Shown here: positions 3,796 through 48,478 of the stretch, in pieces
Position numbering within the stretch: position 1 is the stretch's first letter
Layout of the letters: each line of letters starts with the position of its first letter
Source of the DNA: an uncultured delta proteobacterium
GTDB taxonomy: Bacteria > Myxococcota_A > Polyangia > Fen-1088
Reading direction: 5' to 3'
Length of the DNA stretch: 64,000 nt
Assembly: GCA_963758155.1 (NCBI GenBank)
Contig: CAVWUP010000006.1
Span: forward strand, 22,399 to 86,398
Program-made: the position numbers and the translations under genes
The notes under the pieces: generated by a model
Seen by the model: the letters and a program-made list of their open reading frames with translations, nothing else
Told to the model about the DNA's origin: nothing
Database searches by the model: none

Positions 3796-3816
3796 ATCCG
3801 ACAGATCGATCCCACG

Positions 3817-4113: not shown

Positions 4114-4144
4114 TTCGCCGCCCCATCCTCCGGGGCCGAACTTG

Positions 4145-4324
4145 TCAGGAAGCCTTCTTGGCGGCGCTCGCCCTTCTTGGCGGCAGCGTTACCACGTGCC
4201 GCCCACTTGCCCGCTGCCGAGCCCTCGCGGCCTCGGCGATTCTCCGGAGATCGTTGTCCGACGCCTTGGCTATGGCCTCGCGAATCGCGTGGATCTCGTC
4301 GACGATAGGATCGGAAAGCGACAT
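4145..4324 (-). CDS. 59-aa putative antitoxin/partner of the PIN protein (absent from the ORF track)
   Basis: My translation of the minus strand gives MSLSDPIVDEIHAIREAIAKASDNDLRRIAEAARARQRASGRHVVTLPPRRASAAKKAS*. Its ATG lies 3 nt after the PIN gene stop. Confidence 0.5.
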   Translation of the reverse strand: MSLSDPIVDEIHAIREAIAKASDNDLRRIAEAARARQRASGRHVVTLPPRRASAAKKAS

Positions 4325-4327
4325 TGT

Positions 4328-4798: not shown

Positions 4799-4870
4799 GG
4801 GCAATGGCCGCCTTCTGCCCAACCTGAATTCGGCAAGTCTAACCGAGTTGCGTCCGTAAGCCTAGCGGCC

Positions 4871-5110
4871 CTGAGCGAGGTCAACGCCGCGAGCAAGCAC
4901 GAACCAATTTCCTACGGCGCCACGCTGGCCTTTCAACAAGTGGCCTCCATGATTCCAGAAACCATCCCCGTCATCCTGGAATCGATCGTCAGCGCCGAGT
5001 TCATCGACGACGAGATCGAAGCCGCGCACGAGGCATTGGCGACAGGCGGTCCCCGGCCGCGGGTGCGAAGGCGACGGTCAGGCGCGACGGCCAAGCCGGT
5101 TCACGCGTAG
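4871..5110 (+). pseudogene. Second copy of the same gene 3' fragment (direct repeat of 3874..4113)
   Basis: 240 nt that aligns colinearly with 3874..4113, with about 20 mismatches by manual count. It encodes LSEVNAASKHEPISYGATLAFQQVASMIPETIPVILESIV...VHA* and has no upstream coding continuation. Confidence 0.6.
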
Positions 5111-5201
5111 GCGGTCCCGGCGGTGATGCTGGCGTGCCCCATCCGGCCTGGTCCGCTAGCGACATGGCGTTGACCTGCGGCGCGCGCCGCCCAACGCCGG
5201 T

Positions 5202-9209: not shown

Positions 9210-9241
9210 GGGACAGATCTCCGGTCAGGCCAGGCCCGACG

Positions 9242-11624
9242 TCAAGAAGCCTTGTACAGCTCGTCCTCAAGATCGCGGACAGCCTGCTGGTACTTGTCCT
9301 TGCCGCCGAAGGTTTCCACGATCTCGACCGGGGTGCCCAGGCGGGAGAGCGGGTTCAGCTTGAGAACGTTCATGGTCTCGATGTCGTCCACGCCCTCGTC
9401 GGCGTACTTCTGCAGCAGCGCCTCCAGGGTATCGCGGGCAGCGGGACCGTACTTGGTGAAGTAGTTCCGCTTGCGCACGTTGTTGGCGCGCTCCTTGCGG
9501 GTCAGGGCTGGCTGGTCAAAGGCCACGTGGCACACGAGATCGAAAGCCGAAAAGTCCTTGCCCACTTCCTCGGCCAGCTCCTCGAAGAAGACGCCTTGCT
9601 CGCGCAGCTCGGCGACCACGGCCTGCTTGCGGTCGGCCTCGGTCCAGACTTTGAGGAACCGATCCAGGGACGCGAACTCCTTGCGCACGGCCTTGCGGAC
9701 GTAGTCACGCAAGGATTCGCTGACCAGTTTGCCGTCGTTGCCGTAGTACTGGACGCGCATTGGCGAGTCACGGTGACCGGCACGTCGTCCACGACGTACT
9801 TCTTGCGATGGCCGCCATCAGCAGAGACAGCTTCGCCGGGACTGCCTTCCCCGCTTGCCCTGGGCTTCGCCATCAGCAAACGCCGGGGCGGCGGCAATGC
9901 TGCCTTCCTCGTCCGGGATCTCTGGGGGAACCGGGGACTCGTCGACTTTGGGCCGGTAGATCTGTACCGGCTGACCATCGAAGTCGGGATCGGCGAACAG
10001 CTCGGTGGCGCGCTTGAAGTCGATGATGGTGAAGTAGCGCTTGTTGTAGTCTTCGCGGATGCGCGTGCCACGTCCGATGATCTGCTTGAACTCGGTCATG
10101 GACTGGATGGTTTGGTCCAGAACGATCAGCTTGCAGGTCTGGGCGTCCACGCCGGTGCTCATCAGTTTCGATGTGGTCGCGATGACCGGGTAGCGCTGGT
10201 CGGGAGTGATGAAGTTTTCCAGCTCGCCCTTGCCATCGGGGCTGTCCCCGGTGATGCGCATGATGTACTTGCGGTTGGCGGAGGACAGATCCTCGTTCTC
10301 GTTGACCAGGGCCTGGCGCATGCGTTCGGCGTGATCGATGTCTTCGCAGAAGATGATGGTCTTGTCGTAGCGGTCGGTGGCCTTGAGAAACTCGGTCACC
10401 TTGCGCGCCACGAGCTCGGTCCGCTTTTCGAGAACGAGGGTGCGGTCGAAGTCGCGCTGGTTGTAGATGCGGTCGATCGATGACTTCGCCGTGCTTGTCG
10501 CGCTTGCCTTGCTCGGGCCGCCAGCCCTGGAGATCCTTGTCGAGATCGATGCGCACCACCTTGTAGGGGGCCAGGAAGCCGTCTTCGATGCCTTGCTTGA
10601 GCGAGTAGACGTAGACCGGCTCGCCGAAGTAGTTCGTGGTGGAGATGTCGGTGGTTTCCTTGGGCGTGGCGGTCAGGCCGATCTGCGTCGCCGATGAGAA
10701 ATAGTCCAAGATCTCGCGCCAGGCGGAGTTGGCGTTCGCGCTGCCGCGGTGACATTCATCGACGACGATCAGGTCGAAGAATCCAGGGGAGAACTGCTTG
10801 AAGATGTCCTGCGACTCTTCGTTGCCAGAAATCGCCTGGTACAGGGCCAGATAGATCTCGTAGGACTTCTCGGCCTGGCGGTTCTTGATCCGGTGCATGG
10901 CCGCACCAAACGGGCTGAAGTCCTTGTTCTTGGTCTGGGTCAACAGGATGTCGCGGTCAGCGAGGAACAAGATGCGCTTCTTGATGCCCGCCTTCCACAG
11001 GCGCCAGATGATCTGGAACGCGGTGTAGGTCTTGCCGGTCCCGGTGGCCATGACCAGCAGGACGCGGTCTTGTCCCTTGGCGATGGCTTCGACAGTGGCG
11101 TTGATGGCGCGGGCCTGGTAGTAGCGCGGGCTCTTGTCGACGGCGTCAGGGTAGTAGTCCTGGGTGACGGTGGGCAAGCTGGCGCCGCTGATGCCCTTCC
11201 ACGTGCAGTACCGCTTCCACAGCTCGGCCGGTGAGGGGAACGCATCCATGGAAAATTCACGCTCAGGACGCCGCTGCTGACCCGACCTGTCGTGTTCGAG
11301 GAAGCCGTCCCCGTTCGAGCTGTAGACTGACGGCACGCCCAGCATTTCGGCGTAGGTCAGGGCCTGTTGCATGCCATCGCCAACCCGGTGCTTGTTGTCC
11401 TTGGCCTCAACCACCGCGATGGGGATGTTCGGCTTGTAGAAGAGGACGTAGTCGGCGAACTTCCGCTCGCCCCGTCGGACCATGCGTCCGCGAACGATGA
11501 CCTGGCCGTCGGTCAGGTAGACCTGCTCGCGCACCTGCGAATTGATGTCCCACCCGGATGCGGTCAACGCCGGGGTGATGAACTTGGTACAGATGTCCCG
11601 TTCCGACAGGTCTTTCTTGTTCAC
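9242..11624 (-). pseudogene. hsdR: Type I R-M restriction/helicase subunit HsdR, three frameshifts
   Basis: A GTG at 11624 gives [20 protein letters not shown]. Nuclease (VVEAKD) and helicase motifs ([18 protein letters not shown]) are in the frame of ORF 9873..11813. The helicase C-terminus ([13 protein letters not shown]...QIIGRGTR) is in the frame of ORF 9818..10411. KKYVVDDVPVTVTRQ is in a third frame, and the C-terminus (RVQYYGNDGKLVSE...) is in ORF 9242..9760. Confidence 0.85.
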
Positions 11625-13743: not shown

Positions 13744-15174
13744 ATGAAAACCCAACTTGCACTCGCTGCCGGTTTCGTAGGCCTTCTTGCTGCCCGCTCG
13801 GTCTTTCCCTGCGGCGCGCCCTTTGGCACAGGAATCTCGGCCAATCCGCAACAGGACATCATCGTGGCCTACAAGAATGGGGTGGAGACCTACGTGTTCC
13901 AACCCACGTTCTGTGGTACCGCCAGCAATTTCGGATTGATCCTCCCCGTTCCTTCGACTCTCACGGTGTCCCCGGCCCTGTCCGACCAGCAAGCCTTCAC
14001 CACCGCCGACAGCCTGTCACAGCCGGAGTACATCACCAACACCGTTTGTATGGGAGGGACCACCGGTAGCGGCACGGGGGTGGCCGCCGCGGGCGGATCG
14101 TCGGGGTCGAACGGCGGCGCCACCGTGGTATCGAGCGGCCGGGTGGGTTTCCTCGATTGGGCTCAACTCAAGGCTGATACCGTGGCGTCGTTCACGGATT
14201 GGCTGACCAGCAACGGGTATCCTTACGGCACGGCAGCGTCGGACGTATTTTCCTATTACGTGCAGAAGGATTGGTACTTCGTAGCTTTCAAGATTAGCCA
14301 GGGGGCCATGCCCGACGGCGGAAGCGGCGTGGTTTGCAATGCCCTGGGTCCGGTCAAGCTGTCGTTCGCGTCCACTGTGCCGGTCGTGCCCTCGCGCATG
14401 GCAACCGCCGGCACCGTCTCGACGGGTCCCTATTCGTACGCCTTTTCCTGGCGCATTTTTGCCATCACCTCGGGCGACCAGCAACTGGCCTTTACCGACG
14501 GGGCGAACAGCAATCGGGTATTTGGATACTCGGGGGCGCTGGCAGCATCCGATGTTACCTCTTTGGCTGGACTGGCTCAGACGGGCGACCGTCTGACCAA
14601 GCTGACTTTGACGTTCGCCTACGGATCGACGGATCCGGATGTCGGCCTGTCTTTGGCCACCGCGAGTGACTATCGGCAAATCATATACAACACCCAGTAT
14701 GTCCATTGCCTCGATGCCGGCACGGATGCTGTCGTCGACGGGATTCCCGGCGGGTTGAGGGACGTGGGGACTTCGACCGATCTGCAGCCGCGGCCCACGC
14801 CCGACGCAGACTCCTCTTTTGACGTGGAACCCGCTGCCGACGCTTGGGTGAGTCCAGTCCTGCGATTCGATGCGCAGCCCGCACCTGTGCCCGATGCCGG
14901 CCCCAGCGCCGATGCAGGCGCTCGGGTGGTTGCCGACGCTCGCATCAGCTCGGACACAGCTTCTCACATGGTCCCCGACGCAGGAACCAAGCCCGAGGCA
15001 CCGGCCGCGGTAGCAGGCGTCGATGCGGGAGGCAACTTCGACGCCGCGAGCATTGCTGGGCTTTCCGCCCGGGGCAGCGGCTGCTCGATGGCCGGAGGCT
15101 CGACCTCCGGCGGCTGCCTCGCTCTCACCTTGCTCGGGCTGGTGTTCGCTGTCCGGCTTCGCAGGCGGCGATAG
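13744..15174 (+). CDS. DUF2330-like secreted protein with MYXO-CTERM-type tail
   Basis: ATG at 13744 lies 3 nt after the FGE-domain gene stop. Signal peptide then FPCGAPFG...YVFQPTFCGTASNFGLILPVP. The C-terminus is GSGCSMAGGSTSGGCLALTLLGLVFAVRLRRRR. Confidence 0.7.
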   Translation: MKTQLALAAGFVGLLAARSVFPCGAPFGTGISANPQQDIIVAYKNGVETYVFQPTFCGTASNFGLILPVPSTLTVSPALSDQQAFTTADSLSQPEYITNTVCMGGTTGSGTGVAAAGGSSGSNGGATVVSSGRVGFLDWAQLKADTVASFTDWLTSNGYPYGTAASDVFSYYVQKDWYFVAFKISQGAMPDGGSGVVCNALGPVKLSFASTVPVVPSRMATAGTVSTGPYSYAFSWRIFAITSGDQQLAFTDGANSNRVFGYSGALAASDVTSLAGLAQTGDRLTKLTLTFAYGSTDPDVGLSLATASDYRQIIYNTQYVHCLDAGTDAVVDGIPGGLRDVGTSTDLQPRPTPDADSSFDVEPAADAWVSPVLRFDAQPAPVPDAGPSADAGARVVADARISSDTASHMVPDAGTKPEAPAAVAGVDAGGNFDAASIAGLSARGSGCSMAGGSTSGGCLALTLLGLVFAVRLRRRR

Positions 15175-15201
15175 CACAGGCCAGAGGCTGCAGCTTCGCA
15201 G

Positions 15202-16347
15202 CTATCTTGTGCCGAGAGCCTTTTCCAGAGCCTCAAGTGACAGGAAGGTGAGCTTGAGCTTGCCGTGCTTGCGCTCGAGCGGTGCGGGCAGGTCGGGAAC
15301 CACCACGAAGTTGCGCCCGGCCGTATGGGTCTCCCTGAAAGCGAACACGCCCCTCGGATCGAACGAAGCGACCGACCACTTGCACTCGATGGCGTCGGCA
15401 GCGTGGCGGCCTGCGGGCAACACGAAGTCCACCTCGCGCTGTTGCTTGTCTCGCCAGTAGTGAACCGCGCGCGCCGGGAAGGATGCCGTCAGGGTTTCCA
15501 GCACAAGATGCTCCCACAACAGTCCGCAGTCCTTGGAGCGTAGCTCGTTCCATCCGCGACAGTACGCCACGAAGCCGCTGTCGAAGCCGTAGACCTTGGG
15601 TTGACGAACCAGCTCCTGCTTGCCGCTGCCGTGATACGGTCGCAGCAGGGTGACCGCGTGGGTGACCTGCAGAACCTCCACGTAGTTCATCACCGTGGGG
15701 CGGCTCAGCTCGCAAGCACGGGCGATGGAAGCGAAATCGCAGAGCCCACCGCTCTGGCGCAGCAGCAACTCGACCAAACGCAGGAAAGCCGACCGTTTCT
15801 CCACCCGGAACAGCTCCTGTACGTCGCGCGCGTAGAACGAGTCGAGCCACTCGGCGTAGAATTCGGGCTCCCGCTGCTCGGCCAGCAAGGCCGGTGGCAG
15901 ACCGCCACGCAGCAGGCGACGCCGCAGGTCCTTCACCCCGAAGGCCGCCAGTTCCCGCACCAGCACAGGCTGCAGGTGAACCATCTGCTTGCGGCCGGTG
16001 AGCGAATCGCGAAACTTCTGCGTGGCCGCCAGGGTCGACGAGCCGGTGGCCAAAACCTTGAGGTGCGGGAAGGCGTCTGCGGCAATCTTGAGAAGGCGGC
16101 TGGGGTCAGGAAGTTGGTGGATCTCGTCGAGAATCAACACGGGCGCTTCCACCGAACGCAGGAATCTCTCTGGATCGGCGACGCGCTCGGCGGTGCTGGG
16201 GAGATCGCAACTCAGGTACAGCGCCTGGTCCAGGCTGCGCGCCAGCGTCGTCTTGCCAACCCGGCGCACGCCTGACAACCAAGCAATCGGCACGCGACTC
16301 CAGGCGCGCCGGAGCTTCTCGTCCCAGAAGGGCCGCAGGACTTCCAT
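15202..16347 (-). CDS. AAA-family ATPase with DUF4143-type C-terminal domain
   Basis: 381-aa ORF with Walker A GVRRVGKTT and Walker B VLILDEIH. The C-terminal half is restriction-endonuclease-like (REVDFVL). Confidence 0.85.
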   Translation of the reverse strand: MEVLRPFWDEKLRRAWSRVPIAWLSGVRRVGKTTLARSLDQALYLSCDLPSTAERVADPERFLRSVEAPVLILDEIHQLPDPSRLLKIAADAFPHLKVLATGSSTLAATQKFRDSLTGRKQMVHLQPVLVRELAAFGVKDLRRRLLRGGLPPALLAEQREPEFYAEWLDSFYARDVQELFRVEKRSAFLRLVELLLRQSGGLCDFASIARACELSRPTVMNYVEVLQVTHAVTLLRPYHGSGKQELVRQPKVYGFDSGFVAYCRGWNELRSKDCGLLWEHLVLETLTASFPARAVHYWRDKQQREVDFVLPAGRHAADAIECKWSVASFDPRGVFAFRETHTAGRNFVVVPDLPAPLERKHGKLKLTFLSLEALEKALGTR

Positions 16348-16531
16348 ATCCAGACTTTATGTTTGGTCTAACCATTTGTAAAGTCTGTTTCCGTCTGCGC
16401 AACCGGCACGTCGGGCCCAAAACAGGTCAGCGCCAACCGCGCCGTGCTTGACCCGAAGGGCAGCGGCACCATTGACGTGGGCGGCGGGTTGCCTGACGGA
16501 CGGGTCTGCTGGAATTCACATCAGCAAATTG

Positions 16532-16549
16532 TTGTGAATTCCATCACAA
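16532..16549 (+). promoter_or_regulatory. Candidate Rex operator TTGTGAATTCCATCACAA
   Basis: Near-palindrome matching the Rex box consensus TTGTGAA-N4-TTCACAA. It lies in an A/T-rich spacer about 180 nt upstream of rex and overlaps a perfect 10-bp inverted repeat (GGAATTCACA at 16511..16520, TGTGAATTCC at 16534..16543). Confidence 0.6.
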
Positions 16550-16731
16550 TCTTGTCATCTCAAATCTTCTATTGATTACGCTAGGTTATCCAGATCAAAC
16601 GCGAACAATTCACGTGCTGAATGCGCTTATTAGATAGTCAACGCGCGCGCAACCATTGACTTTCATTGCCTTAGGCGTACCATCGCGATGTTAGCTGTTA
16701 CTGCAATCACAGCGTTTCTAGGTTCACATAG

Positions 16732-17400
16732 ATGCCTGTACATAACTTTCACAGACACGGCCGCGGTGGAGCCAATATTGCCTCGGAACGGGTGGTTTCG
16801 CGGCTGATTCTTTATCGGCGGCTCTTGCGCGAAATGTCATCGAGAGGTATCCGGTGCGTGTTCTCCCACCAGATCGCCAAGCGCGCCAACGCAACTCCGG
16901 CGCAACTTCGCCGCGACCTCATGGGGCTCGGCTCGGTCGGGACGCCCAGCCGCGGCTACGAGGTCAAGGAACTGGAAGCACGCATCGGCGACTACTTGGC
17001 CGCGTCTGCCCCGCAAAGGGCGGCTCTGGCTGGGGTGGGGAACCTGGGCCGCGCGCTGCTGAAGTATGCGTCGTCGCGCGGGGCTGGCCTGCGCATCGTT
17101 GCAGCCCTGGACCAGGAACCGGCGCAACTCGAGACCAGCGCTGGTGAGTGTCCCTGTTTCCACATCAGCGAGACGGCCAAGGTCGTCAGCGACTTCAACA
17201 TCGACGTGGCCATCATCGCGGTCCCGGGCCCCGCAGCCCAGGGTGTGGCCAATCGGCTTATCGAGGCCGGGGTGCAGAGTCTGCTCAATTTTTCGGACGC
17301 ACCCTTGCGCGTGCCAGCCGACGTCTTCGTGGACCACGTCGACATCGACGTCTCGCTGGAGAAGTTCGCCTTCTTCGCCCGCCGAAACGCGCGGCAGTGA
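16732..17400 (+). CDS. rex: Redox-sensing transcriptional repressor Rex
   Basis: 222 aa. N-terminal winged helix VSRLILYRRLLREM..SHQIAKRANATPAQLRRDL, then the Rossmann motif LAGVGNLGRAL. Confidence 0.9.
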   Translation: MPVHNFHRHGRGGANIASERVVSRLILYRRLLREMSSRGIRCVFSHQIAKRANATPAQLRRDLMGLGSVGTPSRGYEVKELEARIGDYLAASAPQRAALAGVGNLGRALLKYASSRGAGLRIVAALDQEPAQLETSAGECPCFHISETAKVVSDFNIDVAIIAVPGPAAQGVANRLIEAGVQSLLNFSDAPLRVPADVFVDHVDIDVSLEKFAFFARRNARQ

Positions 17401-17407
17401 CAACCTC

Positions 17408-17890
17408 ATGCAAGCCAACAATCACAACATAGACCAGATTCTGGAAAGGCACGTGGGAGCCCGGCGGGATCGGCTGATCCCCATCCTGCAAGAGGTGCAA
17501 AAAGCCCAGGGCCACCTCTCGCGCGAGGCCATGATGAAGGTGGGGCGACACCTGAATCTGCCGGCGAGCAAGGTCTTCGGTGTCGCCACCTTCTACAATC
17601 AGTTCCGCTTCGCCCCCATCGGCAAATTCCACATCCAGGTGTGCCGGGGCACGGCTTGCCACGTGAAAGGCTCGCGCGCGGTGGTCGATGCCATTCGCCG
17701 CACCTTGAAAGTGGAACCAGGCCAATCCACGCGCGATGCCCTCTTCAGCCTGGAAGTCGTGGCCTGTTTGGGTGCATGCGGGCTGGCCCCGGTGGTCGCC
17801 ATCAATGGCGAATTCCACGGCGGTGTCACGTCGGATACCGTGCAGAAGCTCATCGCCAAGTGCCGGAGGGCCGCCCATGCCAACACTTGA
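17408..17890 (+). CDS. hydC: NuoE-like [2Fe-2S] subunit of a multimeric [FeFe]-hydrogenase
   Basis: ATG at 17408 in ORF 17066..17890. NuoE/HoxE-type motifs VCRGTACHVKG and ACLGACGLAPV. Confidence 0.9.
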   Translation: MQANNHNIDQILERHVGARRDRLIPILQEVQKAQGHLSREAMMKVGRHLNLPASKVFGVATFYNQFRFAPIGKFHIQVCRGTACHVKGSRAVVDAIRRTLKVEPGQSTRDALFSLEVVACLGACGLAPVVAINGEFHGGVTSDTVQKLIAKCRRAAHANT

Positions 17891-19883
17891 GCAAGAAGCC
17901 GGCCTGTTCCGCTGCTGCGATGCCTGTTGGCACAGCCCCAGCCGGCCCTGTCCCGACGTTGTGGCTTGCCTGACCGGCGACTTCCGTTGCCACGCCAGCG
18001 CGGCTTGCGACGGCAAACGCCGTGACCACATCCGAGCGCTGAAACGTCAGAACGCCGCTGTTCCGATCCTGTACCTGGGCACCGGCACCTGCGGATTCGG
18101 CGCAGGTGCGGGCAAGACCCTTGCCGCAATCAAAGCGTATCTGTCCAAGACCGGCCATCAGGCAAAGCTGGTGGAAGTTGGCTGCCTGGGCCTGTGCTCG
18201 CGCGAGCCCTTGCTCGATGTACAGCTTCCCGGCCAACCGCGGGTGACCTTTCTCGATATGACCGAAGAGAAGGTGCCCGAATTCTTGGACGAGGTGTTCG
18301 ACGGCGAGCTTCCGGGCGCCGCCCTGCTCGGTCAGCATCGCAACCCGGCCTTCACTCCCTTGGCCGATGTCCCGTTCGTCGACGAGCACCCGTTCTTCCG
18401 GCCCCAAACGCGGTGGGTGTTGGCCAACTGCGGACTGGTCGATCCGACGGACCTTGAAGAGTACATCGTCTGCGGCGGCTACCAGGCTCTGACCAAGACG
18501 CTGCGCCAGCACACGCCCGAACAGACCTGCGCCGTCATCGAACAAAGTGGTCTGCGCGGCCGAGGCGGCGGCGGGTTCACCAGTGGGAAGAAGTGGAACC
18601 TGGCCCGTCAGGTGGCCGCGGATCAGAAGTATCTGGTCTGCAACGCTGACGAGGGCGATCCAGGCGCGTTCATGGATCGTTCGGTCATCGAGAGCGATCC
18701 CTTCCGCTTGCTCGAAGGCATGGCCATCGCCGGCCACGCCATCGGTGCCAGCAAGGGCATCATCTATATCCGCGCGGAATACCCGCTGGCCATCGAGCGC
18801 CTGCTCACCACGATCCCCAAAGCGCAGGCTGCGGGATTTCTCGGGCACAACATCCTGGGCTCGGGCTTCGATTTCGACGTCAGCATCAAGCAGGGGGCAG
18901 GCGCTTTCGTGTGCGGCGAAGAAACCGCGCTCATGCACAGCATAGAAGGCCGCCGCGGCATGCCGCGTGTGCGGCCGCCCTATCCGTCGGTCAAGGGCCT
19001 GTGGGGCAAACCCACCTGCATCAACAACGTCGAGACCCTGGCCAACGTGCCGGGAATCATGAAAAACGGTGCCGATTGGTTTGCCTCGGTCGGCACGGCC
19101 ACCAGCAAGGGCACCAAGGTATTCGCGCTGTCGGGCAAGGTCGTGCGCACCGGCCTGGTGGAGGTTGCCATGGGCACCAGCGTGCGCGACGTTGTGTTCG
19201 GTGCCGGCGGTGGCATCGCCAACAACAAGAAGTACAAGGCCGTGCAGATCGGCGGCCCGTCGGGCGGCTGCATCCCCGAACAGCACCTCGACATCCTGGT
19301 CGACTACGAGTCGCTGAAAAAGGTGGGCGCCATGATGGGCTCGGGCGGCCTGGTGGTCATGGACGAAGACAACTGCATGGTCGATGTGGCGCGCTTCTTC
19401 ATGGACTTCATCCAGCGCGAAAGCTGCGGCAAGTGCATTCCCTGCCGCGAAGGCACGCGCCGCATGCTGGAGATTCTCAATGCCATCACGCGCGGCTATC
19501 GCAACGAGAGCCCGCACCAAAGCATGGAGCGCTTCAAGGGCGTGATGGCGCTGGAGGAACTGGCCGAGGTCATCGGCGACACCAGCCTGTGTGGATTGGG
19601 ACAGAGCGCGCCCAATCCGGTGCTTTCCACCTTGCGCTGGTTTCGCGAAGAGTACGAAGCCCACATTTTCGAGCGCAAGTGCGCGGCGCATGTCTGCGTG
19701 GAGCTGCTCAACTACACGGTCGACAATGACAAATGCACGGGCTGCACCGTGTGCACCAAACAATGTCCCACCGCCGCGATCGTGGGCGAAAAGAAGACGG
19801 CCCACTACATTCTGCAGGACAAGTGCATTGCCTGCGGTACTTGCGCCGAGGTCTGCAAATTCGACGCCGTTCGCGCGGACTGA
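17877..19883 (+). CDS. hydB: NuoF-like flavoprotein (NADH/FMN, Fe-S) subunit of a multimeric [FeFe]-hydrogenase
   Basis: ATG at 17877 overlaps the hydC stop. Thioredoxin-like 2Fe-2S region (GTGTCGFGAG...GCLGLCSREP). FMN/NADH site GLRGRGGGGFTSGKKW. SLBB and 4Fe-4S motif ESCGKCIPCREG. C-terminal 2x[4Fe-4S] ferredoxin (CTGCTVCTKQCP, CIACGTCAEVC). Confidence 0.9.
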   Translation: MPTLEQEAGLFRCCDACWHSPSRPCPDVVACLTGDFRCHASAACDGKRRDHIRALKRQNAAVPILYLGTGTCGFGAGAGKTLAAIKAYLSKTGHQAKLVEVGCLGLCSREPLLDVQLPGQPRVTFLDMTEEKVPEFLDEVFDGELPGAALLGQHRNPAFTPLADVPFVDEHPFFRPQTRWVLANCGLVDPTDLEEYIVCGGYQALTKTLRQHTPEQTCAVIEQSGLRGRGGGGFTSGKKWNLARQVAADQKYLVCNADEGDPGAFMDRSVIESDPFRLLEGMAIAGHAIGASKGIIYIRAEYPLAIERLLTTIPKAQAAGFLGHNILGSGFDFDVSIKQGAGAFVCGEETALMHSIEGRRGMPRVRPPYPSVKGLWGKPTCINNVETLANVPGIMKNGADWFASVGTATSKGTKVFALSGKVVRTGLVEVAMGTSVRDVVFGAGGGIANNKKYKAVQIGGPSGGCIPEQHLDILVDYESLKKVGAMMGSGGLVVMDEDNCMVDVARFFMDFIQRESCGKCIPCREGTRRMLEILNAITRGYRNESPHQSMERFKGVMALEELAEVIGDTSLCGLGQSAPNPVLSTLRWFREEYEAHIFERKCAAHVCVELLNYTVDNDKCTGCTVCTKQCPTAAIVGEKKTAHYILQDKCIACGTCAEVCKFDAVRAD

Positions 19884-19904
19884 TCCCTGGAAAAGGAACT
19901 GCTG

Positions 19905-21629
19905 ATGCCGTTCATCGAAGTCAACAACCGCCAAGTCGAGATGAAGCCCGGCGAGATGCTTTTGTCCACCATCAGACGGGCCGGCGTTCGCGTCCCCACT
20001 CTCTGTGCCTTGCCCTCCCTGGATCCCACAGGCGCCTGCCGCATCTGCGTGGTCGAGGTGGAGAATCATCGCGGCCTGGTGCCAAGCTGCTGCGTGCCCG
20101 TGACCGAGGGCATGAAGGTGAAGACCCATTCGCCTCGCGCGGTCAGGGCGCGCAAGACAGTGGTGGAGTTGTTGCTGGCCAACCACCCCGAAGACTGCAT
20201 GTATTGCCCACGCGATGGCTCGTGCCAGCTACAGAAGCTGGCCATCCAGCATGGCGTGCGCGAGCGCCGCTACCCGGGCGCCAGCCAAAGTCAGCGGACC
20301 TGTGACGTGTCGAGTGCGTCGCTGGTGCGCGATCCGGCCAAGTGCATTCTGTGCGGCAAGTGCGTGCGGGTGTGCGAGGAAATCCAGGGCGTTTCAGCCA
20401 TCGACTTTGGCGGCCGTGGCAGCCAGACCGTGGTGGGACCCGCGTTCGGCGACGGGCTCAACGTCTCCAGCTGCGTGAACTGCGGCCAATGTGTCGTGGT
20501 TTGCCCGACGGCCGCTCTGACTGAACAGAGCCACATCAAGAACGTTCTGGCGGCGCTCAACGATCCGCAGCGCACCGTCGTCATCCAGCATGCGCCCGCG
20601 GTTTCCGTCACCCTGGCAGAAGCCTTCAATCTACCGGCCGGCACTGATGTGGCCGGGAGCATGACCGCGGCCCTTCGCCGCCTGGGTTTTCGCAAGGTCT
20701 TCGACACCAGTTTCTCGGCCGACGTGACCGTGATGGAAGAGGCCAGCGAACTGGTGGCGCGGATCAAGAGCGGGGGCCCGCTGCCCATGTTCACCAGTTG
20801 TTCGCCGGCCTGGATCAAATTCGTCGAACAGTTCTACGGCGACATGATTCCCCATCTGTCCACCTGCAAGAGCCCGCAGCAAATGTTGGGCGCGCTCATC
20901 AAGAGCCACTTCGCCGCCCAAGAGGGATTGGACCCACGACGGATCTTCACCGTGGCAGCCATGCCCTGCACAGCGAAGAAGTTCGAAGCGCGGCGACCGG
21001 AAATGGTCGAGGGCGGGTTGCCCGACACCGATGCGGTGCTGACCACGCGCGAGCTGGTCGAGATCATTCGCATGCACGGGCTCGACTTGCGCGAGCTGGA
21101 CCCCGAGGCGGCTGACGCCCCCTTTGGTCTTCGGTCTAGCGCCGGGAAACTATTCGGTGCCACAGGTGGCGTGATGGAGGCAGCCCTGCGCACAGCCCAC
21201 CACCTGATCACGGGGCGCGAGTTGGACGCACGGACCTTGCCCGCGCTGCGGGGTACTGACGGCATCAAGGAGATGAAGATTCGCGTGGGCGACATTGAGC
21301 TCGGGGTGGCCGTAATCAGCGGACTGCAGAAGGCGCGGCGCTTGCTCGACGAAATTCGCGCGGGACGCAAGGATCTGCACTTCGTCGAGGTGATGAGCTG
21401 CCCAGGAGGCTGCATCGCCGGCGGCGGGCAGATGCTGGGCGCTGACCTCGATGCCGTGCGCGCGCGGATGGCGGCGCTGTACGCACTTGACGAAAACAGC
21501 ACCCTGCGCACGGCCCACGGCAATTCCGCGGTGCGCGCCCTCTACGATGAATTCCTGGGCCAGCCGCTCGGTGAACGAAGTCACAACCTTCTGCACACCC
21601 ACTACCAGCCCCGCGATTTGCCACTTTAG
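19905..21629 (+). CDS. hydA: [FeFe]-hydrogenase catalytic subunit (CpI-like M3 architecture) with a variant L1 motif
   Basis: N-terminal 2Fe-2S (CRICVVEV). His-ligated cluster HPEDCMYCPRDGSC. 2x4Fe-4S (CILCGKCVRVC, CVNCGQCVVVCP). H-domain motifs FTSCSPAW, MPCTAKKFE, MSCPGGCIAGGGQ. Confidence 0.9.
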   Translation: MPFIEVNNRQVEMKPGEMLLSTIRRAGVRVPTLCALPSLDPTGACRICVVEVENHRGLVPSCCVPVTEGMKVKTHSPRAVRARKTVVELLLANHPEDCMYCPRDGSCQLQKLAIQHGVRERRYPGASQSQRTCDVSSASLVRDPAKCILCGKCVRVCEEIQGVSAIDFGGRGSQTVVGPAFGDGLNVSSCVNCGQCVVVCPTAALTEQSHIKNVLAALNDPQRTVVIQHAPAVSVTLAEAFNLPAGTDVAGSMTAALRRLGFRKVFDTSFSADVTVMEEASELVARIKSGGPLPMFTSCSPAWIKFVEQFYGDMIPHLSTCKSPQQMLGALIKSHFAAQEGLDPRRIFTVAAMPCTAKKFEARRPEMVEGGLPDTDAVLTTRELVEIIRMHGLDLRELDPEAADAPFGLRSSAGKLFGATGGVMEAALRTAHHLITGRELDARTLPALRGTDGIKEMKIRVGDIELGVAVISGLQKARRLLDEIRAGRKDLHFVEVMSCPGGCIAGGGQMLGADLDAVRARMAALYALDENSTLRTAHGNSAVRALYDEFLGQPLGERSHNLLHTHYQPRDLPL

Positions 21630-23949: not shown

Positions 23950-25530
23950 CTACTTGGGGCTCACCTTCACCACCGTGTTTCTCGTGGCCCAATAGACACT
24001 GGTGTCGTCCACGGCGATTCTCCCGGGGCTGTCTTGCGCCAGGGCGAGTTTCGTAGGGGTGCCACCGCCGAGTGGTGCCTTCATCACAGCACCGCCGCTA
24101 TAGAGATCGGCACCGTTGGTCCAGTACACGGAAGAGCCGTCGACTGCGATGCTCGCGACGGACGAAAATGGAGCCCGTCCCGATACGAGCGTCACCGGAC
24201 TGCCGCCGTCGAGTGGCATCTTCATCACCGAGCCGCCCGCGATCCAGTACACGCTGGTAGCGTCCACCACGAGGGCATGCGGGGCGTCTTGGGCCGAGGC
24301 GACCATGATGGGAGTGCCGCCGCCGACTGGCACTTTCATCACCGTGCCGTCTGTGGTCTCTTCGGATCCGTAGCTGAACGTTCCAAACTTGGTCCAGTAG
24401 ACGTAGGCTGCGTCCACGGCGATGCTGCTGGGGAAGCCCTGGACCGAGGCCACTGGGACAGGAGTGCCGCCGTCCAGTGACACCCTCATCAGAGCGCTGC
24501 CGGTCATCCAATAGACGCCACCAGCGCCCAAGGCGATCCAGCTCTGGCCTCCGTTGGCAAGCGTTGTGGGAGTGCCACCGGCCAAGGGTACTTTCATGAT
24601 GTCGTAGGTCGAATCGGTCATAGGTGACACCCAGCGTACCCAATAGACGCCGAAAGCGTCTACAGCGATATTTTCGATCATGTTGTCGTCGGAGACGAGC
24701 GGCGTAGGAGTGCCACCGCCCAGCGGTACCTTGTTCAAGCTGTCATGATTCACGTTCCCGTCAGCCGCCCAGCCGGCCACCGTCCAGTACAGGCTGGAGT
24801 TGTCCACTGCGATGTCCCTGACAGACTCCACCGAAGCAAGAGTGGCCAGCGTGACGAGACAGCGGCCCAGCATACACTGAGTCGTGGAAGGAGCGGGGAC
24901 GGACGGGCAGATGGTGCCGCATCCGCCGCAGTTGTTGCTGTCCATCTGGATATCGGTGCACATATCGTTGCAGGTCACATCACATGTGCAGGTGGGCTCG
25001 GTACCGTCCCATGTGCCATCGGCCTGGCAAGTGCGGGTTGCATCGCCCTGCAGGCTGTATCCGGACGAGCAGAAATAGCTGGCCGTCGCCCCATATTTCG
25101 TGATGGGGGCACTGACCACCCCGTTTGCTATTCCGGCAGGCGTTTCGCAAACAGCATCAACCGCGACGCAGGTTGGAACATCGCCGCTCCAGGTTCCATC
25201 GGTCTGACAGGTGCGGGTCGCAGATCCCGAAAGAGCGAAGCCTGGCGTGCATGAATAGGTGGCCGTGGACCCATGTGTGTATGCTGGCACGCTCACGGAT
25301 CCGTTGCCGGGATTGGCAGGCGAGCCACAAACAGCGGCGGTCAGGCTGGATGCTCCGCCTATTCCTCCCGCAATCAGAATCGGCCCGCTGCCGCCAGCGC
25401 CACCGCCCGCCGAGTCTTGCTGGCTCTCCACACCTCCACCTCCATCGGGCCGCGACTTTGCGCTCCTGGTCGCGCAACCAACGACAGCGACTGCGACGAA
25501 GAAATGGAGGCCGCGTTTGACCATGGTCAT
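23950..25530 (-). CDS. Lipoprotein with two Sushi/CCP modules, a Cys-rich spacer and a 7-bladed YWTD-type beta-propeller
   Basis: ATG at 25530 (RBS AGGGA) with lipobox VAVVGC. Two 54-aa CCP units: C..P..G...Y.C..G[FY].L.G....C...G.W....P.C. Seven repeats of [IV]AVD...[VL]YW...VMKVP..GG.P. Confidence 0.85.
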   Translation of the reverse strand: MTMVKRGLHFFVAVAVVGCATRSAKSRPDGGGGVESQQDSAGGGAGGSGPILIAGGIGGASSLTAAVCGSPANPGNGSVSVPAYTHGSTATYSCTPGFALSGSATRTCQTDGTWSGDVPTCVAVDAVCETPAGIANGVVSAPITKYGATASYFCSSGYSLQGDATRTCQADGTWDGTEPTCTCDVTCNDMCTDIQMDSNNCGGCGTICPSVPAPSTTQCMLGRCLVTLATLASVESVRDIAVDNSSLYWTVAGWAADGNVNHDSLNKVPLGGGTPTPLVSDDNMIENIAVDAFGVYWVRWVSPMTDSTYDIMKVPLAGGTPTTLANGGQSWIALGAGGVYWMTGSALMRVSLDGGTPVPVASVQGFPSSIAVDAAYVYWTKFGTFSYGSEETTDGTVMKVPVGGGTPIMVASAQDAPHALVVDATSVYWIAGGSVMKMPLDGGSPVTLVSGRAPFSSVASIAVDGSSVYWTNGADLYSGGAVMKAPLGGGTPTKLALAQDSPGRIAVDDTSVYWATRNTVVKVSPK

Positions 25531-25579
25531 TAGAATCCCTGCTCGACAACGACTATAATAGCACCCTGGGGCCAAGAGC

Positions 25580-26270
25580 ATGGATGAAGTCAGCCGACGG
25601 ACAGGGCGACATCGATCAGCAACTCGTCATCGGTATGCCCTGTTTGTGCTCACAGTCTTGGGCGGCTGCTCAAGAAGCCCGCTCCGTACTGCGCACGATG
25701 GGGCTGCCGCCGGAGGTGACAGCGGTGAAAACTGGGACACCCCTGGCGCCACCAGTGGCAGCACTCAAGATGGGGGCGGCGTTGCAACCGGCGGCGCGGC
25801 TGGCATGGGGACCGGCGGAACGCTCGGCTCATCAGCCGGAGACACCGGTTCTGGCGGTGCTGTGGATGCCAGCAGCACCCGCGGTGCAACGGACGCCACT
25901 GGAGATGCGATTTCCACGGATGGCAGTCCGGGTGCCGTTGAGGATGCGGATTACATCCGAAACCGAGGTCGATGCCTCACCCGATGGCTGGTGTGACGTG
26001 AATCCACTGTGGAATGCGATTACTGAAGGCGCAGGAGTAGGTTTGGGATACTGTTTCGCCTTTGTGCCGGACTACGATCCTGGTTGCGGCTTCGTCAGAA
26101 ACGGGGGCTATGTCGTCTTCGACGGCGACGGCAGGGTTGTCGACAATACGGGCTTGTTTGGGTCACAGAAACAAGCATGGCTGGACGGCTTGTCCACTAT
26201 GCGCTGGCCATGCTATGCGGGCCAGACCATCCAATACATGTGTGTTGAATATCCGGATGAGCCGTGCTGA
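25580..26270 (+). pseudogene. Lipoprotein gene apparently split between two frames
   Basis: The frame of ORF 25580..25996 supplies the lipoprotein signal (ALFVLTVLGGCS) and a Gly-rich linker. The frame of ORF 25584..26270 supplies a 6-Cys globular C-terminus (DGWCDVNPLW...YMCVEYPDEPC). The switch lies somewhere near 25900..25965. Confidence 0.45.
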
Positions 26271-27048
26271 TTGAATTGCGACGGCAGCCGCAGAGTCAAC
26301 ACGCCGCTCACATCAGCAAAGCCACCGTCACCACATGCGCATCGAGGTCGCGGCAGAGCAGCGTTAGTGAGCGCGGCGCAATTCGCGCCGCCAGTACTGG
26401 CGCCAAACTGACGTCCAGCGCCCGCCATGCCTCCGCCAAGGCTGCGGGTGCGTCCACTTTCGTCACCCACCACAATGTCGCGCGTGTCGTGACGAAGCCC
26501 GATGCCTATGGCCTTGAGCACGGCCTCTTTGGCGCTCCAGATGCGCGCGACTGTTCGGTCGACGTCGCCACCACCTGCCACCCAAGCGGCCTCGCTCTCA
26601 CTGAAGAACTGTCGCACCAACGCTGGATCGCGCGGCTCTACGGTTTCAATGTCAGCGCCGATCCTCGCACCAGCGACCAGCGCGATTGCGGCCAAGCCGC
26701 AATCCTCGCGATGCGAGATCGACAATGACAAGGGCAGTCTCCCGTGCCCTTGTTGATCGACATAGGGCACGCCGGCCTCGTCATTGAGAATGCTGAACTG
26801 GCCACGCCAGTCTGGATTCGACTCCGACTCTCCCAGATAACTCCGCCACAAGGCCGTTCTCCTCCGCAGCCAATTCGCCGAGCAGACGCTTGGCTGCCCA
26901 GCGGCCGAGCAGCCACTTCCGTCGACGCGGCAACAGCGTCAGTCCGGCGAGGATGGTCTTGCTCGCGCGGGCTGAGCAGACCCGGCGGCGCCTGGCCCTG
27001 CGCCAGGGCGGGATGCTCGCTGGCGTGGACCAGAATGGTGCGGAACAT
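26213..27048 (-). pseudogene. Sfp-type 4'-phosphopantetheinyl transferase, reading across three frames
   Basis: ATG at 27048 lies 9 nt after the synthase stop (MFRTILVHASEHPALAQGQAPPGLLSPREQ). The text continues in a second frame (TILAGLTLLPRRRKWLLGRWAAKRLLGEL). It then continues in a third (SILNDEAGVPYV...LSLSISH...GADIETVEP...WSAKEAVLKAIG). Confidence 0.6.
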
Positions 27049-27057
27049 TGGCGCCGG

Positions 27058-35742
<8,685 letters not shown>

Positions 35743-35847
35743 TTAAACTTCCTCCAAAATATCGAAAACGGAAAACCGGCGCCCTACGGCCCTGCCCGGT
35801 ATCCGAATCAAGCGATTGATTGCGTCCTCGAGTTTCTCTCTGCCCGG

Positions 35848-37509
35848 CTATGCGCGCGCGGCATCCTGCTCAACCAAGGCCTTGGCCACAACATCCATAT
35901 CGGCCATCAAGCCCTTGGCGCATGCCGTGATGGCGCTGGACCGGAGAGAACGCTCGAAGTCGGCAATGGCTGCATCATCTACTGCATCCATACCGCGCAC
36001 CAGACGAACCGCCAGACCCAGCACGTCAAGCGCCGCCTCGCGCGCACAGATACGCGACATGGCCTTGATGGCCGAAGGTGCGAAAAAGGGCTGGTACTTG
36101 GGTGCGCCCCGGCCCGCGGCATAGCGGGCGAAATTCGCGGCAATCTCCGCCCGGGTCATCAACTCGCCCAGCTCGAAGAGCACATGCTGATTGCGCGTCA
36201 AACGGCCGATGCGGCAGCGCTCGGTCGTCTCCTGAACCACGTTCACGGCCAGAGCCGCCGCATCGGCCCCCACGTTGGGATCCTCGCGGTGCAAGGCTTC
36301 GAGCGAAGCGGCGATCTTTTTGTAATACTGCCCGTGGTCCTGCAGGTGCGCACGCCAGCGATCGCGCGACACCGTCCACTGCATGATCTCGCTGGTGCCT
36401 TCGTAGATGGTGGTGATGCGCACGTCGCGCCGGATCTTCTCGACCTCGTATTCCCGGGTGTAGCCATAGCCGCCGTGCGCCTGGATGGCCGCATCGGCAG
36501 CGGCGTTGCCCGCCTCGGTGGCAAAGAGCTTCACGATCGCGCCCTCGGTCTGCAGCTCAGGCTCGCCCTGATCCAGCCGATGCGCTGTCTCCTCGATGAG
36601 GGCGCGCGCCGCCTCCAGCCGGACCACATGGGGCACGATCAACTTGTCCATGTAGCCCTGCTTTTCGGCCAGGGGCGATCCGGCCTGTATGCGCTCTCGG
36701 CCATAGCGGATGGCCCTGATCATCGCCGCCACGCCGCCGCCCAGGCCAAAGGCCGCCACCATGAGGCGCGTGAAGCCGAACACCGACTGGGCGTGGGCCA
36801 GGCCTTTGCCCTCCACGCCACCCAGCAGGTTCTCCTTGGGAACGTACAAGTCCTCGAAGATGACCGGCGAGGTGTTGGACGATCGGATGCCCAACTTGTT
36901 CTCGTGCTTGCCGGGGACCAAGCCTTGGGTTCCCTGTTCCACCGCAAAGAACGTAGGACCATCGGGCGCCATGGCCAGCACCGTGTACAGCTGCGCGTAG
37001 CCGCCGTTGGAGATGAACTGCTTGGCGCCGTTGATCTTGTAGCCTTTGATTTCGCCGTTCTCCATCACCCGCTCGGCGCGCGTGCGAATGGCCGACAGCT
37101 CACTGCCCGCCAGGGGTTCGGTCACGGCGTAGGCGACAATCAAGCCTTCGTCGGCAATGCGGCGCAGCCAGTAGGTCCGCTGCTCCTCGGTCGCGCCGAC
37201 CACGATGGGGTCGGTTCCCAGGAATATGGCCAGGAACGCGGTGGCCACGCCCAGGTCCAGCTTGGCCATCTCCTCCGAGACCCGGTAGACGTCGTAGGCG
37301 TTGCCGCCCAGGCCGCCCAGTTCCTCGGGGATGAACAAGAGGTGCAGGCCAATGTCGGGACCCAGCAGCTCCCGGATCAGATCCAGCGGAAAGACATCTT
37401 TCTCATCTAGCTCCAGCCGGACCTTGAGCGGTAGCTTCTGCTTTCCGAATGATGTTAGTGTATCAATCAGGGTTTGGAGCGAATCTTTGTCGAGACCTGC
37501 GTTCTTCAT
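35848..37509 (-). CDS. Acyl-CoA dehydrogenase family protein with ~150-aa C-terminal extension
   Basis: ATG at 37509 (a TTG lies one codon upstream). ACAD N/M/C regions (AYAVTEPLAGSE, FISNGGYA, GGYGYTREYEVEKIRRDVRITTIYEGTSEI). First gene of the synthase operon. Confidence 0.9.
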   Translation of the reverse strand: MKNAGLDKDSLQTLIDTLTSFGKQKLPLKVRLELDEKDVFPLDLIRELLGPDIGLHLLFIPEELGGLGGNAYDVYRVSEEMAKLDLGVATAFLAIFLGTDPIVVGATEEQRTYWLRRIADEGLIVAYAVTEPLAGSELSAIRTRAERVMENGEIKGYKINGAKQFISNGGYAQLYTVLAMAPDGPTFFAVEQGTQGLVPGKHENKLGIRSSNTSPVIFEDLYVPKENLLGGVEGKGLAHAQSVFGFTRLMVAAFGLGGGVAAMIRAIRYGRERIQAGSPLAEKQGYMDKLIVPHVVRLEAARALIEETAHRLDQGEPELQTEGAIVKLFATEAGNAAADAAIQAHGGYGYTREYEVEKIRRDVRITTIYEGTSEIMQWTVSRDRWRAHLQDHGQYYKKIAASLEALHREDPNVGADAAALAVNVVQETTERCRIGRLTRNQHVLFELGELMTRAEIAANFARYAAGRGAPKYQPFFAPSAIKAMSRICAREAALDVLGLAVRLVRGMDAVDDAAIADFERSLRSSAITACAKGLMADMDVVAKALVEQDAARA

Positions 37510-37581
37510 CAAACCTGTGCCTTCCTGGTCCTAGTGAATCGGTGGGAAAAGGGGGGTACCCCGGCTGAAAGGTTCCGATGC

Positions 37582-37910: not shown

Positions 37911-38312
37911 CTACTTCCACCGACCCTCGCCGCCCTCGGCCTTCTTTTTGGCTTCTTCCGCGGCTTTCTCCTTCTGCTTCTTGGCCTGGGCTGCCTTGGC
38001 CTCGGCTTGTTTCTTCTTGTCGTTCTGCTGAATCTTCTTTAGCGCAGCCGCAGCGTCCTTCTCCTGCTGCTTCTGGCGTTGCTCCTCGCAACCGGCCGGC
38101 TCACAGTCGTTCTCGCACTCGCACTTCAGCTTCTTTCCCTTGTTGCAGTGGCACTGGTCTTGGGCGTCGCGGTAGCAGCCGCAGGCATTGAGGGGCGTAG
38201 CAGCCGGCGGTGGTTCCGCTTCCGCCTTGGCAGCCTTCTGCTTGGCAAGGGCCGATCCGGGCGTCCAGACTAGAAGGCCAAACACTGCGATGATCGAGAG
38301 TGTGATCCGCAT
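37911..38312 (-). CDS. Small secreted protein: Cys-rich core plus Lys/Ala/Glu-rich tail
   Basis: Signal peptide MRITLSIIAVFGLLVWTPGSALA. Cys-rich core CGCYRDAQDQCHCNKGKKLKCECENDCEPAGC. Then a KKQAEAKAAQAKKQKEKAAEEAKKK low-complexity tail. Confidence 0.55.
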   Translation of the reverse strand: MRITLSIIAVFGLLVWTPGSALAKQKAAKAEAEPPPAATPLNACGCYRDAQDQCHCNKGKKLKCECENDCEPAGCEEQRQKQQEKDAAAALKKIQQNDKKKQAEAKAAQAKKQKEKAAEEAKKKAEGGEGRWK

Positions 38313-48450: not shown

Positions 48451-48478
48451 GATTCTGGTGGTGTAGTTTTCCCTGTCC

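Follow-up and report, generated by a model that had tools for sequence, protein, structure and literature searches.

The closest described relatives of the system reported here are the "Type R" secondary-lipid synthases, catalogued by Shulse and Allen in 2011 (PMC3098273) as clusters in which a single pfaA homologue is followed by a phosphopantetheinyl transferase (PPTase) gene. The domain order of the homologue, KS-MAT-CLF-ACP(3-6)-KR, denotes a ketosynthase (KS), a malonyl acyltransferase (MAT), a chain-length factor (CLF), three to six acyl carrier protein (ACP) domains and a ketoreductase (KR). The hosts, Roseiflexus, Ca. Koribacter, Ca. Solibacter and Elusimicrobium, belong to unrelated phyla; an acetyl-CoA carboxylase (ACC) gene is sometimes inserted in the cluster, the P1b' motif of the PPTase reads hShxH and not FNxSH, and the product is not known (PMC3098273). 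Here we describe a locus that encodes an acyl-CoA dehydrogenase (ACAD), a PfaA-like megasynthase and a PPTase-like gene in an uncultured delta proteobacterium (GTDB lineage Myxococcota_A; Polyangia; Fen-1088). It lies in a 64-kb stretch of contig CAVWUP010000006.1 (assembly GCA_963758155.1, positions 22,399 to 86,398), hereafter called the window. The reading that we hold to be slightly more likely than not is that of a Type R PfaA-like secondary-lipid synthase, an iterative type I machine resembling fatty acid synthases (FAS) and polyketide synthases (PKS), in which the ACAD would serve as a trans-acting enoyl reductase (ER) and the carriers would be modified on threonine.

The likeness to the Type R catalogue lies in the domain order KS-MAT-'CLF'-ACP-KR, in a downstream PPTase with hShxH and, sometimes, in an ACC gene. 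In the window, one pfaA homologue contains KS, MAT, a KS-like domain, four carriers and KR, with a dehydratase (DH) added after KR, and 9 nt past its stop stands a PF01648 match in which LSISH can be read, in a frameshifted gene. The locus of a Roseiflexus metagenome-assembled genome (MAG), L018, is collinear, with the order ACAD-KS-AT-KS-ACP3-KR-DH-PPTase and an identity of 62-64% in the second KS (KS2). Many Acidobacteriota loci are collinear as well (KS2 identity 55-64%, L018 included), the comparison having been made through MAG relatives and not the named Type R strains. A pattern scan for the distinctive KS2, taking one genome per species, found it in at least 586 species genomes; the comparative counts below (80-82 loci, 59 of them with flanking DNA) describe the best matches of these. 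The best 80 loci come from Chloroflexota, Acidobacteriota, Actinomycetota, Myxococcota and Verrucomicrobiota, and the closest among the matches listed are Myxococcales or 'delta proteobacterium' MAGs, with KS2 identities of 87% and 76%. By domain order and gene layout, then, the locus is a member of the catalogued Type R class. A preliminary description of this DNA had presented the architecture as an orphan, a view that does not survive the 2011 catalogue and the spread of KS2 loci over at least 586 species genomes. Its remark that the architecture could not be assigned to a described pathway still holds for the chemistry, the Type R product being not known, but no longer for the type of gene cluster.

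Four traits are missing from the 2011 catalogue entry: an ACAD gene upstream of the synthase, a DH at the C-terminus, a 'CLF' whose Cys/His/His set is intact, and carriers with Thr. Beyond that paper, the literature searched yielded no characterisation of the architecture or of an ACAD partner of a synthase resembling those for polyunsaturated fatty acids (PUFA), and two later surveys held nothing specific to the Type R architecture. Three features predicted from the sequences would appear to be unreported so far in the literature searched: an active FabF-type KS2, the complementarity of ACAD and PfaD together with linkage to electron-transfer flavoprotein (ETF) and ACC genes, and invariant Thr carriers.

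Among the better-characterized systems, PfaA of PUFA synthases shares with the window synthase the N-terminal KS-MAT, tandem carriers, a KR followed by a PKS-type DH, an Sfp-type PPTase and iterative use of malonyl-CoA; the window synthase differs by the extra FabF-like KS between AT and carriers, by its Thr carriers and by the ACAD as redox partner. Set against the whole PfaABCD system, the window is without PfaB, PfaC (KS-CLF and FabA-type DHs) and PfaD; lacking a FabA-type DH, it offers no known way to make cis double bonds. In the heterocyst glycolipid system (HglE/HglC/HglD, Type F), a PfaA-like KS-AT-ACPn-KR protein works together with another KS-like unit and an ER acting in trans, and the product is a long, saturated, partly hydroxylated chain. 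Its second KS/CLF-AT and its PfaD-type ER are separate proteins, and its terminal reductase is HglB. Should the ACAD be an ER, this system would be the nearest analogue in function. In the window, by contrast, KS2 is fused, there is a DH, and it would be the ACAD that takes the ER role. The enediyne synthases (PKSE) have the order KS-AT-ACP-KR-DH-PPTase, with one Ser-type ACP, a fused PPTase domain, a partner thioesterase (TE) and an enediyne cassette. Compared by domain order only, they resemble the window synthase in the succession of KS-AT, carrier, KR and DH with a PPTase next, in having no ER, in iterative action and in kinship to PUFA synthases; they differ in that the window synthase has KS2, tandem Thr carriers and an ACAD partner. 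A Pfam scan of the coding-like open reading frames (ORFs) in the window found no enediyne TE or cassette genes.

KS2, which the 2011 catalogue lists as 'CLF', was examined by sequence and by structure prediction. The KS-like domain spans residues of about 1090-1560, with a ketoacyl-synt match at about 1175-1520; its Pfam matches are PF00109, PF02801 and PF08545, its best PDB sequence matches are FabF enzymes, and no NCBIfam model reaches its cut-off on it. When 34 diverse homologues are aligned, none varies at the Cys, the two His or the Lys, and all 82 loci have the Cys. An AF2 model of KS2 (pLDDT 87.7, pTM 0.91) retrieved with Foldseek a top 50 made up almost entirely of FabF/KASII structures (TM 0.81-0.88 by target length), the list also containing three mitochondrial KS entries. 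A CLF is a KS-like domain that lacks the active-site Cys. Because of the invariant Cys/His/Lys/His set, the FabF sequence matches and the predicted fold, KS2 fails the strict definition of a CLF and is, as predicted from sequence and model, a FabF-fold KS that is catalytically equipped; the preliminary description had already judged the inserted domain complete. The megasynthase would thus be a fusion of a PfaA-type KS-AT with a FabF-type elongating KS. Assignment of KS2 to the FabH/thiolase type was considered and rejected: the PF08545 and Thiolase_N matches cover just ~40 residues round the Cys, and the full domain aligns and folds as FabF.

The four tandem carriers are the second distinctive feature. 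They match PF00550 (E 1.3e-21), motif search resolving four domains and Pfam three stretches, and they lie on a 348-bp tandem DNA repeat; the sequence common to all four is DLEADLGIDTVKQAEVF. All four belong to the PF00550 fold and family, and none has the conserved attachment Ser, which in such domains lies in a (D/E)xGxDS motif where helix II begins. In its place stands Thr, which aligns exactly with the phosphopantetheinyl Ser of the solved ACPs PigH, CurA and bacterial AcpP. Across 80 loci the motif DLG[IV]DTVKQAE was found in 252 of 255 carrier domains, the three exceptions being regex or frameshift artefacts. A search with one carrier domain against 1.84 billion representative proteins gave 3044 matches at E<=1e-10, and among the best 150 of these 3044 the carriers were Thr-only in 119, Ser-only in 29 and mixed in two. 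The Ser-only carriers belong to canonical PfaA ('DSIKRV') and to a KS-KS-AT-ACPn-KR family ('DSIKKA'). In full-length proteins whose architecture was checked, Thr carriers almost always co-occur with KS2, and this pairing extends to variants with relocated carriers or an extra KS. One protein with the same KS1-AT-KS2-ACP5-KR-DH architecture (P0223) has Ser carriers, and a fragment (P0229) has one Ser carrier and two Thr carriers; because Ser and Thr are thus exchanged naturally at one position, the hydroxyl would be the functional group. On this comparative evidence the Thr is most likely the phosphopantetheine attachment site, with the conserved cluster PPTase adapted to it. Four larger relatives among the representative proteins, of ~3800-4040 aa (P0167, P0210, P0253 and P0270), have the order KS-KS-AT-KS2-ACP(Thr)n-KR, with an extra KS/CLF-like domain ahead of AT besides the FabF-like KS2.

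The ACAD has its N-terminal, middle and C-terminal domains all above cut-off (PF02771, PF02770 and PF00441), and its catalytic Glu lies in the family motif YEG(T/S), which is kept as YEGT in 64 of 64. Its C-terminal extension, given as ~150 aa in the preliminary description, is indeed present but measures ~170 aa and is a degenerate duplicate of the helical domain at the ACAD C-terminus, aligning weakly to Bcd residues 244-364 (E 0.005). The best NCBIfam match is acryloyl-CoA reductase AcrC, and the best PDB matches are a Thermus ACAD, Clostridioides difficile Bcd and MCAD, with CarC also among them. Bcd-EtfAB, CarCDE and AcrC are ACAD-family enoyl-CoA reductases of about 380 aa that receive electrons from ETF; their substrates are free CoA esters, and their setting is anaerobic fermentation. 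It is this Bcd/MCAD/AcrC/CarC group that the window ACAD resembles most, and in 18 relatives ETF genes sit beside the ACAD gene. The window ACAD differs from Bcd, CarC and AcrC by its VLCAD-like C-terminal extra domain, its link to a megasynthase and its mostly aerobic hosts, and presumably acts on carrier-bound chains. Proteins of the VLCAD/ACAD9 type (PDB 2z1q, 3owa and 3b96) likewise join an ACAD core to an extra C-terminal helical domain, the sequence match of the window extension being the weak one to the Bcd C-domain.

An indication of what the ACAD does comes from the 59 related loci with enough flanking DNA. In 51 of them an ACAD with the C-terminal extension (~60% identical to that of the window) lies directly upstream on the same strand and there is no PfaD-like gene; this agrees with the earlier description of the ACAD as a dedicated partner. 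In the remaining eight the ACAD is absent and a PfaD-family gene stands in convergent orientation just after the PPTase. No locus has both and none has neither. The PfaD-family gene passes the TIGR02814 pfaD_fam model with 687 bits against a cut-off of 449. The ACAD-less loci (L028, e.g. 15027-16691, minus; L029, L038, L048, L050, L052, L055 and L066) are all annotated as Anaerolineaceae/Anaerolineales or Chloroflexia MAGs, and in several of them the carriers are relocated to between KS1 and AT. The simplest explanation of such a swap at one locus is that both proteins supply the enoyl reduction that is absent from the megasynthase, and the ACAD is probably the trans-acting ER of the synthase.

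Genes for further partners surround the relatives. In 18 loci, from Acidobacteriota, Verrucomicrobiota, Thermoleophilaceae and Ardenticatenaceae, etfB-etfA lie immediately upstream of the ACAD gene, joined in Acidobacteriota and some others by a 4Fe-4S/CCG oxidoreductase gene. The EtfB of Ardenticatenaceae has as its nearest match CarD, from the caffeyl-CoA reductase-Etf complex. Between synthase and PPTase, Acidobacteriota and Actinomycetota encode a single-chain BC-BCCP-central-CT carboxylase of 1860-1890 aa, while Chloroflexota have separate CT, BC and BCCP genes after the PPTase. A cluster-encoded ACC suggests a high-flux bulk lipid rather than a trace metabolite. The single-chain ACC (~1870 aa) of the Acidobacteriota and Actinomycetota relatives is eukaryote-like. 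Coordinates of such extended clusters (Fe-S/CCG and etfB-etfA upstream, ACC downstream) are 1263-5144 and 15240-20831 in L056, 15179-20845 in L044, 17121-20802 in L005 and 3007-4790 in L023.

Taken together, the genomic context argues for a reductive ACAD, and the following points weigh against this and against modification on Thr. The normal direction of ACADs is oxidative. In Acidobacteriota the nearest match of EtfB is the non-bifurcating W3A1 ETF and the Fe-S/CCG protein resembles the ETF:quinone oxidoreductases of beta-oxidation, so electrons could flow away from the ACAD; the two ETF types are unrelated, evidently the outcome of separate recruitments, and do not reveal which way the electrons run. 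The exchange of ACAD for PfaD is a single phylogenetic event in one clade, whose chemistry may differ because the ACP positions are also rearranged there. The window itself has no ETF gene, and its PPTase gene is frameshifted. To our knowledge all known ACPs carry phosphopantetheine on Ser, we know of no precedent for phosphopantetheinylation of Thr, and nothing on Thr-linked phosphopantetheine was found in the literature searched.

The same facts feed a different reading, in which the product stays unreduced, as a conjugated polyene or a hydroxy/enoyl chain of the kind made by enediyne-type synthases, and the ACAD is oxidative. It would then desaturate an acyl primer or product, or serve a linked catabolic step, and pass electrons through ETF and ETF:quinone oxidoreductase to the respiratory chain. 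The lack of an ER domain in the megasynthase, the canonical catalytic Glu of the ACAD, and, in Acidobacteriota, the 4Fe-4S/CCG oxidoreductase of the ETF-oxidising kind and the EtfB nearest a non-bifurcating ETF would all suit it. Yet on a chain that grows without an ER, an ACAD would find no saturated alpha-beta position to oxidise; the sole ACAD-less clade has acquired, at this very locus, an enoyl reductase of the PfaD family, which fits reductive replacement; and a dedicated ACC suggests bulk lipid over a trace polyene; we regard the unreduced product as rather improbable. Far less probable still is that the protein serves as PfaA in an ordinary PUFA synthase whose PfaB, PfaC and PfaD are encoded elsewhere. 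Its N-terminal KS-AT does pass TIGR02813, narrowly (1027 bits against a cut-off of 1010, the match being confined to that region), but the window holds no PfaC-type KS-CLF or FabA-DH gene, PfaB and PfaC are absent from the conserved neighbours of 82 related loci, which are ACAD, PPTase, ACC and ETF, and PfaD occurs only in the eight ACAD-less loci. The protein moreover has its own second KS, complete and placed between MAT and the ACPs, and its carriers read DTVKQAE against DSIKRVE in PfaA. The preliminary description had likewise set the locus apart from a canonical PfaABCD synthase, and had named pfa partners just outside the window as a finding that would overturn it; none appears among the neighbours that relatives conserve, save PfaD in those eight of 59.

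A further alternative concerns this genome alone and turns on the state of its PPTase gene. An Sfp-type PPTase is ~230 aa long, with two pseudo-repeats and the motifs GxDxE and WxxKEAxxK. In L002, L003 and L004 intact orthologues of 224-232 aa directly follow the synthase, as an intact PPTase does in most other loci, and the cluster PPTase is conserved in 53 loci. In the window its motifs LSISH, GADIE and WSAKEAVLK can still be read, but they are spread over four frame segments (27048-26959, 26963-26868, 26875-26420 and 26448-26317, in frames -2, -3, -1 and -2), and alignment with orthologous DNA places window-specific single-base (+1) insertions near 26960, 26870 and 26450, outside long homopolymers. 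The preliminary description had given the PPTase as the third gene of an operon reaching to 26213; the reading frame is in fact broken three times, the real extent is about 26308-27048, and 26213 marks where a mechanical ORF, in a wrong frame, stops. Programmed frameshifting was rejected, three separate +1 events that are absent from orthologues being not credible. The window PPTase is thus either a pseudogene or a local assembly error. With the PPTase destroyed, the Thr carriers would stay apo and the locus would be a decaying or silent relic that makes no product. Three indels within about 730 bp are improbable at random and look more like decay than random error, and the three +1 insertions in about 510 bp of PPTase stand against none in the 10.3 kb of ACAD and synthase; another gene of the window, hsdR, has an in-frame stop. 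Against decay, neither the synthase nor the ACAD is disrupted and both keep all their catalytic residues, so that any inactivation would be very recent. The related long-read contigs L001 and L002 are full of frameshifts, so the insertions may be a local assembly fault, and a second PPTase may exist elsewhere in the genome. We consider a relic unlikely, though less so than an unreduced product. A broken PPTase would in sum mean a synthase that is inactive, recently silenced or served by another PPTase, or an assembly that is wrong there.

The layout of the locus is given in Table 1. The PPTase-like ATG lies 9 nt past the synthase stop on the ORF map. In the window the locus is a minimal ACAD-synthase-PPTase triad, with neither an ACC nor an ETF gene. 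By Pfam, KS covers residues 11-474 of the synthase, AT (Acyl_transf_1) 605-900, KR 2295-2520 and PS-DH 2609-2880, and the protein is without TE and ER domains; a PDB search with the whole synthase returned generic PKS KS-AT matches only and no close homologue. Catalytic motifs of KS1 are kept in about 75 of 77 relatives, the misses being truncated loci. The AT shows GHSxG in 79 and HAFH in 80 of 81 relatives, motifs from which malonyl specificity is predicted. The KR YxxxN is present in 63 of 65, and the DH His is kept in every relative inspected. Pfam found nothing like pfaB, pfaC or pfaD, no KS-CLF, no FabA-type DH and no further PKS gene among the coding-like ORFs of the whole window, and tblastn queries together with Pfam gave no window match for PfaD, EtfA/B or an EtfD-like protein. 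Much of the preliminary description is borne out by these analyses: ORF coordinates confirm the ACAD and synthase frames, their strand and gaps of 105 and 9 nt, the four catalytic codons (KS1 Cys, MAT Ser, KS2 Cys and DH His) lie at exactly the positions claimed, Pfam calls and motif search agree on the order KS-AT-KS-ACP4-KR-DH, the absence of KS-CLF, FabA-type DH and PfaD genes from the window is upheld, and the view of a self-contained unit is supported. No terminator-like site was found in the ACAD-synthase spacer; the promoter scan returned zero sites and terminator-like sites were rarer than in shuffles, a scan that is uninformative at 65% GC.

Table 1. Features of the ACAD-synthase-PPTase locus and of other genes in the 64-kb window (window positions; residues numbered within each protein).
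Feature	Position	Strand	Details
ACAD ORF	35848-37512	minus	probable ATG at 37509, so gene 35848..37509, 553 aa; catalytic Glu370 (IYEGT), codon 36400-36402
ACAD-synthase intergenic spacer	35743..35847	minus	105 nt
KS1-MAT-KS2-ACP4-KR-DH synthase	27058..35742	minus	2894 aa, iterative type I
KS1, PfaA-type	34321..35712	minus	Cys219 (codon 35086-35088), His353, His393
MAT	33043..33930	minus	GHSLG Ser701 (codon 33640-33642), HAFH at 803
KS2, FabF-like KS ('CLF' of the 2011 catalogue)	31063..32475	minus	Cys1229 (32056-32058), His1377, Lys1412, His1417
Four tandem carriers	29668..30951	minus	DLGIDTVKQAE (motif search and Pfam PP-binding); GIDT at residues 1637, 1753, 1869, 1977; Thr1640 (30823-30825), Thr1756 (30475-30477), Thr1872 (30127-30129), Thr1980 (29803-29805)
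KR catalytic subdomain	28183..28860	minus	Tyr2488 within YSSGN
DH, PKS-type double-hotdog	27103..27918	minus	His2629 (codon 27856-27858) within HAIDGIPVLP
Sfp-type PPTase, disrupted	26308..27048	minus	PF01648 E 6.8e-16; ATG at 27048
133-aa ORF	37911-38312	minus	signal peptide, Cys-rich stretch, Lys/Ala-rich tail
Sushi-repeat protein	23950-25581	minus	543 aa, two strong Sushi/CCP repeats (PF00084, E 1.6e-28)
Type I restriction-modification system	7764-10672	minus	hsdM intact (7764-9224)
hsdR region	9242-10672	minus	Helicase_C part 9818-10672, EcoEI_R_C part 9242-9817
Rex-like redox regulator	16732-17400	plus	start of the 16732-21629 module
NuoF-like flavoprotein	17709-19883	plus	
[FeFe]-hydrogenase large subunit	19905-21629	plus	
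LanB-type lantibiotic dehydratase	48467-51427	plus	986 aa, N- and C-terminal domains

The genes that flank the locus are unrelated to it (a Sushi-repeat protein, a PIG-V-like glycosyltransferase, an [FeFe]-hydrogenase and a glutamate dehydrogenase). About 400 nt upstream of the ACAD gene, on the same strand, is the 133-aa ORF, which has no Pfam match; it was rejected as a component of the system, being kept only in the five closest relatives (L001-L004 and L006). Sushi/CCP domains, such as those of the flanking protein, are usual in animal complement proteins and unusual for bacteria. About 11 kb away from the operon, on its ACAD side, lies the LanB gene, which points to a cluster of the class I lanthipeptide or thiopeptide-like kind. 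In the type I restriction-modification system an in-frame stop separates the two parts of hsdR, which is possibly a second pseudogene or a sign of assembly quality. The [FeFe]-hydrogenase large subunit completes, with the Rex-like and NuoF-like genes, a HydABC-type hydrogenase module.

For a Type R synthase with a reductive ACAD, the following mechanism can be proposed. An Sfp-type PPTase would activate the four carriers by placing phosphopantetheine on Thr, and MAT, judging by its motifs, would load malonyl. KS1 and KS2 would both condense, probably dividing the labour by chain length as KS-A and KS-C of PUFA synthases do, and KR and DH, whose motifs are in place, would produce a 2-enoyl chain. 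The ACAD, probably fed by ETF, would reduce this chain in trans, as Bcd, CarC and AcrC do. With reduction in trans each cycle could be completed, which would give a long, largely saturated acyl chain; since there is no FabA-type DH, there would be no obvious route to cis double bonds. A bolder and more doubtful proposal, which we put forward tentatively, is that the family breaks two rules of FAS and PKS systems jointly, with phosphopantetheine set on Thr by a co-evolved PPTase and with an ETF-coupled ACAD, not an NAD(P)H-dependent ER, as trans enoyl reductase. If this is true, Thr carriers, ACAD/ETF and the cluster's own ACC would make up a self-contained alternative fatty-acid synthase linked to the respiratory chain.

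Fifteen years after the cataloguing of Type R synthases, this locus and its relatives are still an unexplained part of bacterial lipid metabolism. In a metagenome survey, >92% of environmental PfaA-type KS domains fell outside the clades with known products (PMC10308959), so the locus and its relatives would represent a very common part of that unexplained metabolism. The comparative results pose the questions of whether an ACAD can act as a trans enoyl reductase, whether a PPTase modifies threonine, and what product comes from the pairing of a PfaA-KS with a FabF-KS. A Thr-specific pair of PPTase and carrier, if true, would be an orthogonal tool for tagging and engineering. Type R-like relatives are widespread in soil and sludge bacteria, and identification of the product could explain an abundant lipid of soils and activated sludge.

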